This document shows, in pieces, positions 59,093 to 63,682 of a stretch of 64,000 bases of DNA; the stretch's first letter is position 1; every line of letters begins with the position of its first letter. The translations under genes and the position numbers were made by a program. The stretch comes from Blastocatellia bacterium (GTDB lineage Bacteria > Acidobacteriota > Blastocatellia > HR10). Under the pieces are notes generated by a model, which searched no databases, was not told the DNA's origin, and saw only the letters and a program-made list of their open reading frames with translations. The stretch covers positions 7,387 to 71,386 of the forward strand of contig DATLZR010000015.1 in assembly GCA_035573895.1 (NCBI GenBank), written 5' to 3'.

Positions 59093-59797
59093 GTGAGAGC
59101 GGCATTGAGCGCCTTCACCGAACGATTGGTGTCCAGCCCGCTCGGCAAGCAGGTCATGAAGATCGTTCTTTTTGGGAGCCACGCTAAGGGAACAGCCCGG
59201 CAATACAGCGATCTCGATGTCTTGATCGTCGCCAATAACGGGCAAGAGCTGTCAGATTTGATTGCCGACCTCGCCTTTGAGATTCAGATGGAGTATCAGG
59301 TCGGTCTCGAACCTATAACCATCTCTCTTGACGATCTGTTCCCTGTGCGATCGTACTTTGTCTTTAATGCCCTACGCCATGGACGGGAGGTGTACGCAGT
59401 GGCTCATGAAGAGCCGAAGAAAGAGGAGCGGAAGAACCTCATTGCTCTGACCGAGGAATATCTGACTGCCGCCGAACACGCGGCAGCCAGTGGGTATTGG
59501 AGACTGGCCGTAGATGCTGCTTATAATGCAGCGGAACTTGCCCTTAAGCCTCTCATCTTAAAACGGGGTGACGACTTTCCCGGTCCTCACGGGGGGCTTG
59601 TCAGCAGGTTTGGTGAGCTATACGTCAAACCGGGAATCTCTGAGAAAACGCTCGGGCCCAAGTTAAATCAAGCCCCGGAGAAACGAAACCAGGCGAGGTA
59701 TAAATACCAGGCCATCATCAACCAGGATGATGCTCGCACCGTAATCGAGCTGGCCTGGAAATTGAAAGAGCTGGCGGAAAAAGAGCTTTCCGATTGA
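59093..59797 (+). CDS. Fused minimal nucleotidyltransferase (MNT)-HEPN domain protein
   Basis: 234 aa. LFGSHAKGTARQYSDLDVLIV is the GSx9-13Dx[DE] NTase signature. The C-terminal helical region resembles HEPN. The gene sits in a lower-GC (about 50%) segment. Confidence 0.7.
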   Translation: MRAALSAFTERLVSSPLGKQVMKIVLFGSHAKGTARQYSDLDVLIVANNGQELSDLIADLAFEIQMEYQVGLEPITISLDDLFPVRSYFVFNALRHGREVYAVAHEEPKKEERKNLIALTEEYLTAAEHAAASGYWRLAVDAAYNAAELALKPLILKRGDDFPGPHGGLVSRFGELYVKPGISEKTLGPKLNQAPEKRNQARYKYQAIINQDDARTVIELAWKLKELAEKELSD

Positions 59798-60073: not shown

Positions 60074-60844
60074 GTGGCCGGACGAACTTGGGAACCAAGC
60101 GAGATCGAGCGCCCTCGATTCACCGTAATTGCGGGCAGCGGTTTTCGCCCGGAATTTTTCGATTTTGATCGAGGGATCCGGGTGGGAAATCTCGAACCCC
60201 ATGAGCGCATCACCCAGATTCTCAAACGGGCCCTCGAATCGGCTTTCGGCCAAACCTTCACCACCGTGCGTTGGGGACGGGGCGTCTACTGGCAATGGAT
60301 CGGATTCTTTCCTCAGGCCAATCGCTTGGCCAAACCTCTGTCACACCACGTCAGCTTTGGCTGCGCTAAATACTTCATCTCCCTGGAACGAGACGACAAC
60401 TGTGTCAAAGCCGGAATGCAGGTTGAACGGGGATACCTTCGGGCCCCGCGCCAATACCCGGAATGCAGACTCCGTGAGGATTGGGATTGGCACCGGCTCC
60501 TCGCTCAGTTGAGATCGGGAAGCGAATTAGATCATCTCCTCCGTCAGCTCGTCACCGTGGATGGATTCCACATTTACGCCGGGGGCTGGCCCGACGGTGA
60601 GGAACTGACGGCTGCCCGATTCACCGGAGCGACGCAGGTGCGCCGATTACTTCTGTCAGCCCCTTCCACCCAATGGGGTGGATTTCAACTCTACTATCCA
60701 ATGACCCAGAATGACGTTCGTTCGATGACCGGATACGAGATCGTCGAGTCCATCCTGGCTATCTTTGGTGAAGTCACTCCGGTTTTGAATCGCTGCATGC
60801 AAATTCGCCTCCAGCCGTGCTCCCGGCACGGAGGAGGCGACTGA
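60074..60844 (+). CDS. Hypothetical protein (256 aa), no recognisable domain
   Basis: Clean ORF downstream of the MNT-HEPN gene, about 55% GC. Confidence 0.45.
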   Translation: MAGRTWEPSEIERPRFTVIAGSGFRPEFFDFDRGIRVGNLEPHERITQILKRALESAFGQTFTTVRWGRGVYWQWIGFFPQANRLAKPLSHHVSFGCAKYFISLERDDNCVKAGMQVERGYLRAPRQYPECRLREDWDWHRLLAQLRSGSELDHLLRQLVTVDGFHIYAGGWPDGEELTAARFTGATQVRRLLLSAPSTQWGGFQLYYPMTQNDVRSMTGYEIVESILAIFGEVTPVLNRCMQIRLQPCSRHGGGD

Positions 60845-60890: not shown

Positions 60891-60924
60891 CCCTTCCTCG
60901 CGCCTGGTTTGAGGCGAGGAAGGG
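60891..60924. terminator. Strong GC-rich hairpin between convergent genes (likely bidirectional terminator, no clear U-tract)
   Basis: CCCTTCCTCGCGCC ... GGCGAGGAAGGG 11-12-bp stem. A second weaker GGGAGAAGAG/CTCTCTCCC hairpin follows. Confidence 0.35.
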
Positions 60925-60973: not shown

Positions 60974-61534
60974 CTATTCGACATCCGCCACAACCGTCTT
61001 GGCAGCTTGCACAACCGGAGCGAAGGCGTCCGGACTTACATTGGTGGCCGCGTAGACTGCCTTTTTCTTCCGGTAGACAATGACGGTGTTGGCGGCATTG
61101 AGGTCAACCTTGTATTTCTGGAGAGCGGGATCCTCGAGGCCTTTGGGGAGAACTGTGAGCGGAATGGTGATGTTTCGCTGAGCGGCCAGGGCTTCTAACC
61201 TCTCTTTCTTCTCCGGCCCGGCCACGAACACGACAAATCCACGAAGCCCACGATCCTGATGCTCCTTGACGAGACGATCAATTTGTTCGACCAACCTGGT
61301 CGAGGCCTCACTGTCGTCCTTGATGAAGGCCATGACGACAGGAGCCATGGCGTACCGTCAGACATAGCACAATTGTTTCCCCTTATTGGGGCCAGTGACG
61401 TCGAGAACATCGAAGGCCGGGGTCGAGTCCCCAACCTGGAAGGATGTCTTCGAATCCTGAGCGTGGCTGCGATAAGCAACATACCCCGCTCCAAGCAGCC
61501 CCACGCCCAGAGCAAAAGCGACAACCCTCTTCAT
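60974..61534 (-). CDS. Secreted thioredoxin-fold protein interrupted by one in-frame TGA at 61358..61360 in a C-Y-V-[TGA] context: candidate selenoprotein (CxxU) or pseudogene
   Basis: ATG at 61534 with a GGGAGGAG RBS. Signal peptide MKRVVAFALGVGLLGAGYVAYRSHAQ. The track splits it into ORFs 61358..61624 and 60974..61348, which are in the same frame. The downstream part has a Trx/Prx-like beta-alpha-beta topology. Confidence 0.5.
61304..61357 (-). other. Stable hairpin(s) immediately 3' of the in-frame UGA: candidate bacterial SECIS element
   Basis: mRNA: UGA CGGUACG CCAUGGC-UCCUGUC-GUCAUGG (7-bp stem, GU in loop, loop G about +20 from UGA). Alternative longer stem GGCUCCUGUCGUC...GACGACAGUGAGGCC. 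Confidence 0.35.
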
Positions 61535-61861
61535 AATTTTCTCTCCTCCCTGTCGAAAGTACTCACCGCCAGACGACGGTGGCGTTCCCACATAGAACCT
61601 CGCCCTTAATAGACGCAGGGACAATGATAGCGGTTACAGTCACATCTGTGAAGGCGCATTAAAGCCGTTGAGAGTTGCTCCGCTCAGGCTCTCTCGCAGA
61701 ACCATCCGGGGAGCCATCCATTCAGGGGTGCCAGCATCCAGAGGGCAGGGGTAAAGCGATAAGGGAAATACGGCTCAATCTACCCTTTCGCTTCGGGCTA
61801 CTCGCTATGGTCCATAGGATCTGTGGTTCTCCTAGAACCACTGCTTTACTCCAACCTGTGC

Positions 61862-63682
61862 ATGATAAAATGGCCAAGGATGATCGGACGACAACAATGG
61901 GGCGCACTTATCCTCGCGGTCTTTCTTGCGCCGTATTTCCTGCACCTGGGGACTTCGGCGCTGTGGGATGCTAACGAAGCCTTTTACGTCGAGGGTCCCC
62001 GCGAAATGCTGGAATCAGGGGATTTACTCTCGCCCCGATTCAATTTCAGCCTCAAGCTCAACAAGCCGATTCTTCCCTATTGGGTGGTCCTGCCCACCTT
62101 TGCACTGTTCGGCGTCAGCGAATGGTCGGAAAGAGTTGTCATTGCAACCTGCATGGTCGTAACTATTCTGCTAACCTACGCCCTTGGCCGTCGTTTGTAC
62201 GGTCACGGGGTGGGGCTGCTTGGAGCCATTGTGCTGGCATCAAGCGTCAAATTCCTGATTGTCGGTCGCCGCTCACTCATTGATGCTCTGCTGACGACAC
62301 TACTTGTGGCGGCGCTCTATCTCCTCGTTCGTGGAGCGACGGAGCGGAAATTTTCCGCCGGAGCCTATATCATGATGGGGCTTGCTGTCCTCACCAAGGG
62401 GTTGGTGGGAATCGTGATCCCCCTTGGAGTTGTCCTGACTTTTCTCCTCTGGCAGGGGATGCGACAAGCCTATCCTCGGTCATCGAGGGGTTCGGTACTG
62501 TCGTTCATCCTCCATCAGAGTCTGCGCGGGTTGAATGTCCTTCGGTTTCCTCTCGGTCTCTTCATCATCCTGGCGGTGGCGACGCCCTGGTATGCCGCCA
62601 TGATCCATCGTCATGGATGGGGGTTTCTCAGCGCTTTCATCATCGGCGACCACGTTAAGCGATTCCTTTACGGAACCTCTGGAATGTCACGTCCCTGGTG
62701 GTACTATGGGCCCGTGCTGATGAGCGAGTTCTTCCCCTGGTCCCTTTTTCTGCCCGCTGCCATAGCGGCGACAGTCCTGCGTCTTCGGTCATCCGGCGAA
62801 GCCTCCTGGGCAACAGGTACGCCGACCGACACGTTCGCGTCGTCCGCCATCTGCCGTTCACTTCCGGCAAACAGTGCCACAGGTCCCGCTTCTGGGCATC
62901 AGGGGTCAGCTCCATCGGAATGGGCTGATTGTTTTCTGCTCGCCTGGATGGGCTTCATCCTGATTTTTTTCAGCCTCTCGGTAGCCAAGCAAAACGAGTA
63001 CCTGCTACCGCTTTATCCGGCTGCCGCGCTCGTTGTCGGTCGGTTTTTCTCCGAGGCTCGGCCCTTTTCCTCCCGACTCATCAAAGGTCTGTTCGCGTTG
63101 TCTATCGCCTTGCTTGCCGGAGGGTTCATTGGCGGGGCCTGGGTTGCCGCGAGTCGGGCCCCGATGCTCTTTGACTCCCATCGGCTGCTGACGACGACCT
63201 CGGTGACTCTGCTCACAGCCGCTTTACTTCTTGCAGGCGCTTATCTGCTTGGGACCCTCCGTCAGGTCTTCGCTCTGACAGCCCTGACGATGCTCGTTCT
63301 CACCGGAGTCCTGCTCTCCCTTCTGCCGAAGCTTGAAGCCTACCGCCCGGTTCGGCACCTGGCTGAGCGCATCACCCGGGAGGCAGCCCCTGATGATCTC
63401 GTGGGATATTATCGGTTCACCGCTCCCAGCCTCTGCTACTATACCCGGAGAAAAATCTTCGAGGTCTTCACCCCCGATGAGATCAAAGAGATTCTTCGCT
63501 CCACCCGCCGCGCCTTCTGCCTCATGTATGAACGCGACATCATCGCCCTCGGCGCGGATTCCGGATGGCCTTTGCGAGTTATAGAATGTCGCCCATCGCT
63601 CTTTCCGATGACAATGAAACGATTCCTCCGCCTGCGAGGTCCCGACGATCTCGAACGTATCTGTCTGGTCACCAATCACTAG
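61862..63682 (+). CDS. GT39/ArnT-like membrane glycosyltransferase (dolichyl-phosphate-mannose protein mannosyltransferase / 4-amino-4-deoxy-L-arabinose transferase family)
   Basis: About 600 aa, polytopic. N-terminal LWDANEAFYVEGPREMLESGDLLSP (DE-containing first periplasmic loop motif). Start at 61862 or 61880; the track ORF starts at 61823. Confidence 0.75.
   Translation: MIKWPRMIGRQQWGALILAVFLAPYFLHLGTSALWDANEAFYVEGPREMLESGDLLSPRFNFSLKLNKPILPYWVVLPTFALFGVSEWSERVVIATCMVVTILLTYALGRRLYGHGVGLLGAIVLASSVKFLIVGRRSLIDALLTTLLVAALYLLVRGATERKFSAGAYIMMGLAVLTKGLVGIVIPLGVVLTFLLWQGMRQAYPRSSRGSVLSFILHQSLRGLNVLRFPLGLFIILAVATPWYAAMIHRHGWGFLSAFIIGDHVKRFLYGTSGMSRPWWYYGPVLMSEFFPWSLFLPAAIAATVLRLRSSGEASWATGTPTDTFASSAICRSLPANSATGPASGHQGSAPSEWADCFLLAWMGFILIFFSLSVAKQNEYLLPLYPAAALVVGRFFSEARPFSSRLIKGLFALSIALLAGGFIGGAWVAASRAPMLFDSHRLLTTTSVTLLTAALLLAGAYLLGTLRQVFALTALTMLVLTGVLLSLLPKLEAYRPVRHLAERITREAAPDDLVGYYRFTAPSLCYYTRRKIFEVFTPDEIKEILRSTRRAFCLMYERDIIALGADSGWPLRVIECRPSLFPMTMKRFLRLRGPDDLERICLVTNH

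Follow-up and report, generated by a model that had tools for sequence, protein, structure and literature searches.

In this study, we asked how a single in-frame UGA codon is read in a gene from a Blastocatellia bacterium of the phylum Acidobacteriota. The gene lies on the minus strand at positions 60974-61534 of the window, by which we mean the whole 64,000-nucleotide stretch of contig DATLZR010000015.1 that was analysed, and the UGA is its codon 59 (UGA59). A first, sequence-only reading of this DNA had proposed an exported thioredoxin-fold selenoprotein with a CxxU motif. On the one hand, this proposal is supported by the conservation of the UGA, by a family column that holds either selenocysteine (Sec) or cysteine (Cys), and by an RNA structure enriched in the Sec forms. 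On the other hand, the hairpin that had been named and the placement of the motif at the beta1/alpha1 junction did not hold. We consider it very probable, from comparative evidence, that UGA59 is read as Sec and that the locus is a real, unannotated selenoprotein gene of a new and widespread family. The evidence for this reading comes from sequence comparison, from RNA structure, and from the predicted fold of a Cys homologue.

One reading frame with an internal UGA

Translation from the ATG at 61534 to the TAG at 60974-60976 gives a frame of 186 codons that contains only one internal stop, the TGA at 61358-61360. This codon 59 stands in the context Cys56-Tyr57-Val58-TGA and is followed by RYAMAP, and the conceptual product begins with MKRVVAFALGVGLLGAGYVAYRSHAQDSKTSFQVGDSTPAFDVLDVTGPNKGKQLCYV, reaches the TGA, and continues with RYAMAPVVMAFIKDD. 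The two open reading frames (ORFs) that had been joined from the letters alone, 61358..61624 and 60974..61348 (both minus), were confirmed by translation to share one frame that is split by the TGA, and the C-x-x-TGA context with U at residue 59 was confirmed as well. The extent of the complete gene, UGA59 included (60974-61534, minus), is based on the translation, the orthologue loci, and the GenBank record. The putative redox motif Cys56-Tyr57-Val58-Sec59 (TGC TAT GTC TGA) occupies 61358-61369 of the minus strand.

The gene has its own ribosome-binding site, as had been claimed: a Shine-Dalgarno sequence, GGGAGGAG, was read at 61543-61550 (minus), 8 nucleotides (nt) 5' of the ATG at 61534, and its GGAGG core lies 10 nt 5' of this start. 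The N-terminus is composed of MKR, a hydrophobic stretch, and SHA/QD (the slash marks the putative cleavage site), and it resembles a signal peptide of the Sec-translocon type, predicted at residues 1-25 (61460-61534, minus). The same n/h/c layout, with A-x-A/Q, can be read in all orthologues, which agrees with the signal peptide proposed earlier.

The GenBank record for this gene, from a Blastocatellia metagenome-assembled genome, covers the last 124 codons only, as 'hypothetical protein VNM72_01980' (HXF04168.1). Because the deposited gene is this 124-residue hypothetical protein, the selenoprotein is unannotated. The fact that gene callers and GenBank annotate the 124-residue ORF alone is also in line with another explanation, in which termination at UGA59 frees an exported peptide of 58 residues, and the C-terminal 124-127 residues are produced by re-initiation or are never made; the window indeed has an ATG 9 nt after the UGA. 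However, this Met at 61348, which is the start chosen by the gene callers, is Leu (CTC or TTG) in the other orthologues, and no Shine-Dalgarno sequence precedes it. Accordingly, the downstream part is not an independent gene. In addition, protein-sequence conservation extends over the stretch between the UGA and the next Met, the Cys homologues are single polypeptides, and the C-terminal part alone would have neither the signal peptide nor the first beta-hairpin of the modelled fold. Considering these points, we regard two separate products as very improbable.

Conservation of the UGA among orthologues

A homologue search that covered 5.8 billion protein clusters returned 8 clusters with 67-92% identity, all of them called as C-terminal fragments of 119-124 residues. 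When the DNA around each locus was read, the frame was found to run on 5' through a TGA after CYV in all 8 orthologue clusters, and upstream of this TGA the orthologues keep the signal peptide and FQVGDSTPAFDV.DVTGPNKGKQLCYV. Close orthologues belong to the acidobacterial class Blastocatellia. Between pairs of orthologues, the synonymous divergence (dS) ranges from about 0.8 to more than 2 and is mostly not computable owing to saturation, while the nonsynonymous divergence (dN) is 0.05-0.27 both 5' and 3' of the TGA. Both flanks of the UGA are under purifying selection.

A very recent nonsense pseudogene had been kept as the alternative in the sequence-only reading. For such a pseudogene, or for an error of sequencing or assembly, only the in-frame stop itself speaks. 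The same TGA is found in dozens of independent assemblies (JGI, ENA, NCBI, Logan), and the UGA has been kept across saturated divergence; the saturated dS together with the low dN on both flanks rules out both a sequencing error and a nonsense mutation of recent date. We therefore give this explanation a negligible chance.

Sec and Cys forms in the wider family

When a profile of the C-terminal part was used as query against 1.84 billion representatives, 193 relatives were found. About half of them are 170-200 residues long and carry C-Y-[V/I/R]-C aligned exactly to C-Y-V-TGA, and the other half are fragments of 110-125 residues that start just past the motif position. Cys56, Tyr57 and Cys59 are invariant in the alignment (A4). 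Among three fragments with DNA examined, two are Sec forms and distant relatives (L081, L082; CYI-TGA and CYV-TGA), and the third is a Cys form whose start had been called wrongly. Thus the column of the proposed U holds Cys (CY[VIR]C) or TGA, and a Cys stands three residues upstream, the two features that the sequence-only reading had named for a check.

A metagenome scan with the pattern GP.KG...CY[VI]-TGA reported 102 matching stretches, and the 80 loci examined contain 84 of the matches. According to a hidden Markov model (HMM) of the sequence after the TGA, 62 of the 84 matches are true family members, and these are very diverse downstream of Sec. Numerous different metagenomes contributed Sec forms, and contigs outside the lineage of the window carry no taxon assignment; every Sec form seen had been deposited as a truncated hypothetical protein of 110-125 residues. 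Four loci (L114, L128, L150, L155) each showed two CY[VI]-TGA pattern matches 600-700 nt apart, as tandem copies, of which the second passed the family HMM in L114 and L128 and failed it in L150 and L155.

A profile search of a clustered database returned at least 426 family members at E<=1e-5, all named 'hypothetical protein' except for rhodanese fusions, which are named 'rhodanese-related sulfurtransferase'. The pattern for the scan of reference genomes carried a Cys codon, so that it found Cys forms only and did not return the window's own species; it supplied the Cys controls used below. These are mostly from Acidobacteriota (Ca. Acidiferrales), with some from Planctomycetota, Verrucomicrobiia, Dormibacterota, and Gammaproteobacteria; Gemmatimonadota are also among the phyla with Cys forms.

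RNA structure after the UGA

In codons +5 to +26 of the orthologues, 8 of the 15 amino-acid-invariant degenerate positions use a single codon, compared with 5 of 63 elsewhere (Fisher p=2e-4). RNAalifold and single-sequence folding gave two abutting hairpins 3' of the UGA. Hairpin 1 (61304-61346, minus) has a long stem, and its orthologue-invariant core is CUCCUGUCGUC / GACGACAG-Y-GAG (61307-61344). It begins 11-13 nt after the UGA and is present in all 52 distinct Sec forms with 10-22 base pairs (bp), and in these its apex lies on the codon of the invariant Phe+11, 25-33 nt after the UGA. Some compensatory pairs were seen within one subfamily. A family-wide column alignment did not capture the stem of hairpin 1 because its register shifts between subfamilies; the stem was instead examined one sequence and one subfamily at a time.

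Hairpin 2 (UCGACCA-GGU-UGGUCGA; 61287-61303, minus) abuts hairpin 1 and shows a stem of 8 bp in a fixed register across the family. In its alignment, 95% of the cells are paired, 7 of the 8 pairs have changed on both sides, and 76 doubly changed cells were observed against 20 expected; none of 500 shuffles reached these values. When the 3' partner was slid as a control, pairing was only 22-42%. The loop follows the consensus R-G-K-Y-U (AGUUU, AGUCU, GGUCU, AGGUU, and others) and includes a nearly invariant G at nt +65.

We compared the Sec forms with 61 Cys forms from genomes of similar guanine-plus-cytosine (GC) content. The mean minimum free energy was -36.3 kcal/mol in the Sec forms and -26.9 kcal/mol in the Cys forms, the mean z-scores were -2.33 and -0.74, and 7.6 and 5.8 of the 8 pairs of hairpin 2 were formed, respectively. 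These differences reached p values of about 1e-10 to 1e-14, but the contrast is not phylogenetically independent, because the Cys controls come mostly from one Acidobacteriota order. In the closest Planctomycetota Cys form, which shares 50% identity with the window protein (L018:3087-3176), both hairpins still fold, and this suggests a recent switch from Sec to Cys.

The sequence-only reading had relied on a different element, a 7-bp hairpin with the arms CCAUGGC/GUCAUGG (61344-61350 with 61330-61336). This hairpin can form in the window but is not conserved: three orthologues (L001, L008, L014) have CCCUCGC or CGCUCGC as the 5' arm, which disrupts 2 of the 7 pairs.

Which hairpin may act as the insertion signal

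As criterion for a bacterial selenocysteine insertion sequence (SECIS), we took a stem-loop directly 3' of the UGA whose apical loop is small and contains a conserved G at a distance of about 16-37 nt from this codon. Published descriptions of bacterial SECIS elements give a stem of 6-8 bp and, about 20 nt past the UGA, a conserved G in the loop (PMC4605307), and the minimal element of the E. coli fdhF type is GGUUGCAGGUCUGCACC (PMC3834832). Hairpin 2 resembles this element in its stem of 6-8 bp and in its location within the coding sequence downstream of the UGA. Its small loop opens with the near-invariant G followed by U or G-U, and the loop A-GGUC-U of fdhF has its counterpart in A-GGU-U, A-GUC-U, or G-GUC-U. 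Unlike in fdhF, a hairpin of about 40 nt (typically 13-17 bp) intervenes before hairpin 2, and the loop G of hairpin 2 is located about 62 nt, and not about 20 nt, after the UGA.

Between the UGA and the foot of hairpin 1, a median of 12 nt (interquartile range 8-14) is single-stranded, and the gap between the two helices has a median of 1 nt. Because the helices abut, the path through the junction places the start of hairpin 2 at a median distance of 13 nt from the UGA. As a tentative working model, which we think possible although doubtful, hairpin 2 might be the binding site of SelB and hairpin 1 a closed insertion, so that the SECIS would be split. Su, Li and Gladyshev reportedly found in 2005 that a SECIS engineered at a distance is functional in E. 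coli if folding brings it close to the UGA. By analogy, a split SECIS would be the natural counterpart of that engineered case.

Several observations weigh against the reading of UGA59 as Sec. Hairpin 1 lies at the usual SECIS distance, but its apical loops (CUUC, UUCG, CCUUCA, and others) are often without G. Hairpin 2 looks canonical in stem and loop, yet its conserved G stands far from the UGA in linear distance, as given above. No Rfam SECIS family was matched, either at the gathering cut-off or at E<=10. The narrow origin of the Cys controls belongs here as well. Finally, neither the 64-kb window nor the related loci, 1.25 Mb in all, yielded selA, selB, selD, or tRNA-Sec. The window contains no tRNA, and no sel genes were found among its 29 ORFs scanned with Pfam; no tRNA-Sec was among the 11 tRNAs in the related loci, and searches of the loci by tblastn with E. 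coli SelA, SelB, and SelD matched only a LepA. This sole match to SelB is a LepA (EF4) gene that adjoins a Sec form (L152:2-1660, minus). In favour of the reading, selenoproteins have been reported in Acidobacteria (PMC1794560).

The missing Sec machinery in the window and the related loci also bears on a further explanation, in which UGA59 is read by a tRNA other than tRNA-Sec. This could be an allo-tRNA suppressor, a SelB-dependent tRNACys of the selC* type, or a near-cognate Trp or Cys tRNA, and residue 59 would then be Ser, Cys, or Trp. Acidobacteria carry allo-tRNAs that were proposed as missense or nonsense suppressors, and some bacteria have tRNASec-like tRNACys opal suppressors (PMC5389517). 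However, hundreds of homologues have Cys in the column of the UGA, within a CxxC motif, which is the standard signature of Sec, and the UGA is followed by a conserved RNA structure that is enriched in the Sec forms. Moreover, the Sec forms come from many different metagenome samples, with contigs outside the window lineage that have no taxon, and a general suppressor would be costly because UGA is the commonest genuine stop. Decoding by a non-Sec tRNA is thus improbable in our view.

The use of TGA as a stop was examined in the window itself, where TGA is the commonest genuine stop and ends 18 of the 29 Pfam-supported genes. Accordingly, the code is standard and the in-frame UGA59 needs local recoding; a global reassignment of UGA was rejected on the same count. 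The window contains 189 frame pairs split by TGA, which is the chance level for 60% GC, and no other pair among them has a worthwhile Cys context.

Predicted fold and position of the redox motif

For the window protein, Pfam gave only a sub-threshold match to AhpC-TSA (E 0.12, 12.8 bits against a cut-off of 26), and NCBIfam gave no match at E<=1. Ten Cys homologues and 9 further diverse members did not exceed the curated cut-off of any family model either; the best NCBIfam score for a fold family, reached by a single member, was that of ResA (NF002854), at 18.5 bits where 170 are required. The structure of the Cys homologue P0181 was predicted by AlphaFold from an alignment of 83 sequences, and this model is confident, with a predicted local distance difference test value (pLDDT) of 90.3. 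The top Foldseek matches of this model were 3fkf, 4nmu, ResA, DsbE, and Prx, with E values of 1e-8 to 1e-7 and target-normalised template modelling (TM) scores of up to 0.80.

In the model, P0181 shows a thioredoxin-like fold with an N-terminal beta-hairpin. DSSP assigned, in this order, the beta-hairpin (42-44/53-54), C55-Y-V-C58 in a short helix (56-59), a strand (64-70), and a helix (75-90). The WCPPC motif of StoA (3erw) aligned to the Cys-free segment 'rdtgdet' after beta1, with a weak E value of 0.45 and in agreement with the P0181 model. Since the canonical segment is Cys-free and the motif precedes beta1, the classical active site appears to be lost and the CxxC/CxxU motif to lie about 12 residues earlier. 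The sequence-only reading had put the CxxU at the thioredoxin beta1/alpha1 junction; the model does not bear out that placement. According to the model, then, the fold is TlpA/ResA/peroxiredoxin-like, and the redox pair is located before beta1 at a non-canonical place. The segment D-V-T-G-P-x-K-G directly 5' of the redox motif is nearly invariant.

The family thus shares with TlpA, ResA, StoA, DsbE, and the peroxiredoxins the best structural matches, the N-terminal beta-hairpin extension, and an export signal. Its conserved (I/F)-P-(L/V), seen in the sequences, may be the counterpart of the cis-Pro loop of TlpA/ResA-type proteins. Unlike those proteins, its sequence scores stay under all family thresholds, and in place of the WCxxC site it has the Cys-free acidic segment IKDDSEAS.

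Many Cys forms are fused to an N-terminal periplasmic rhodanese (P0165, P0173-P0175, P0179, P0184, P0188, P0189, P0192, P0196; L083:2352-3363). The fused rhodanese carries YCPC, and its best NCBIfam match is the sub-threshold NF041203 (rhodanese_LYCAU; 58 bits against 115). This rhodanese-related (seleno)protein family has YCAU where the fusion partner has YCPC. The window protein itself has no rhodanese, and the NF041203-like part is a domain partner that belongs to another family. Directly 5' of the Cys form in L083 (1-3363) stand ORFs of the UGSC family, DsbD_TM (CcdA-like), Thioredoxin_7, and rhodanese, a gene set that looks like an extracytoplasmic reductant pathway. From their sequences, the rhodanese fusions and the L083 neighbours hint at extracytoplasmic redox chemistry of sulfur or selenium(-anions).

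Proposed path from gene to mature protein

From these data, we infer Sec insertion, a SelB-binding hairpin, export with a cleavage site, and a redox function. In this scheme, 60974-61534 (minus) would be one gene for a pre-protein of 186 residues in which UGA59 is decoded as Sec. Translation would start at the ATG at 61534, and at UGA59 the two abutting hairpins would recruit SelB with Sec-tRNASec, hairpin 2 resembling the SelB-binding mini-hairpin with its 8-bp stem and a small loop with conserved G-U. The signal peptide would direct the full-length chain to the Sec translocon for export and would be cut off near Ala25, giving a mature protein of about 161 residues with a TlpA/ResA/peroxiredoxin-like thioredoxin fold. 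Outside the cytoplasm, Cys56 and Sec59 would form a selenenylsulfide couple located before beta1, by which the protein would act as a thiol/selenol oxidoreductase. The full combination, in which hairpin 2 of a split SECIS comes to lie effectively about 11-13 nt from the UGA and Sec occupies a newly evolved site opposite the classical active-site end of the central strand, is a speculative proposal to which we give a rather low likelihood.

Gene neighborhood

No recurrent family was found among 72 flanking ORFs from contigs with Sec forms. A divergent PMT/PMT_2 glycosyltransferase gene adjoins the selenoprotein gene in the window (61823-63682, plus) and in all loci of the close orthologues whose upstream flank is long enough (L001-L016). 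This PMT_2 neighbour is confined to the close Blastocatellia-type orthologues and does not stand beside distant family members. Upstream of the gene, at 61624-61652 (minus), TTCACA-17-TATCAT matches a sigma-70-like promoter, as a consensus match only.

On the other side, a 256-residue ORF without a Pfam match is convergent with the selenoprotein gene (60074-60844, plus). Two orthologue loci (L010, L011) have ORFs of 249 and 256 residues, also without a Pfam match, in the same position and orientation, which correspond to it by size and place only. Between the convergent genes of the window, a strong 11-bp hairpin, CCCUUCCUCGC/GCGAGGAAGGG (60891-60924, minus), is found without a U-tract, and it may be a bidirectional terminator. 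Just downstream, 59093-59797 (plus) encodes a fusion of nucleotidyltransferase and HEPN that is toxin-antitoxin-like. In hot-spring contigs (L001, L003, L005-L007), type III CRISPR-Cas genes (Cas6, RAMP, Cmr2/Cas10) lie about +5.5 to +10 kb from the orthologue; such genes are not near the gene in the window.

Relation to known selenoproteins and implications

A review of May 2026 lists 119 prokaryotic selenoprotein families or subfamilies and gives their motifs together with identifiers from Pfam, NCBIfam, or CDD (PMC13188914, Table 1), and BSepDB, with 111 families, was compiled from the same lists. In the whole table, no entry has both C-Y-[VI]-U and a fold of the TlpA/Prx type; in the entries for Prx, TlpA, and redoxin proteins, the canonical site holds UxxC, UxxS, TxxU, or UGC (PMC13188914). 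For this comparison, we used the models of NCBIfam release 20 and of Pfam, and families with a CDD model only were set apart by their motifs (UxxC, UxxS, UGC). A literature search for the motif CYVU/CYIU found nothing relevant.

With the listed thioredoxin-fold selenoproteins (such as Prx-like thiol:disulfide oxidoreductase PF00578, redoxin-family PF08534, thiol-disulfide isomerase-like/TlpA cd02966, and SelW-like PF10262; PMC13188914), the window family has in common an in-frame UGA that is paired with Cys in homologues, a Cys three residues from Sec, a thioredoxin-type fold, a probable redox function, and a coding-region hairpin directly 3' of the UGA. Some of the listed families are exported too. 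Unlike them, the window protein has C-Y-[VI]-U before beta1 together with a Cys-free canonical site, and none of their Pfam or NCBIfam models is matched by its family. Because no listed combination of motif and fold and no family model fits, the family is regarded as an undescribed selenoprotein family of a well-known kind that has no Pfam or NCBIfam model.

In summary, if confirmed, our reading would add a widespread selenoprotein family that present catalogues and annotation pipelines have missed entirely. According to the model, a thioredoxin-fold scaffold, which would also be exported, has given up the classical CxxC position and acquired a CxxC/CxxU pair at another place. A canonical SECIS is absent from about 13% of the bacterial selenoprotein entries in BSepDB (PMC13326102), and for this reason such cases are needed to widen the models of bacterial SECIS elements. 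The two-hairpin RNA of this family, which is well supported by covariation, is a test case for these models.

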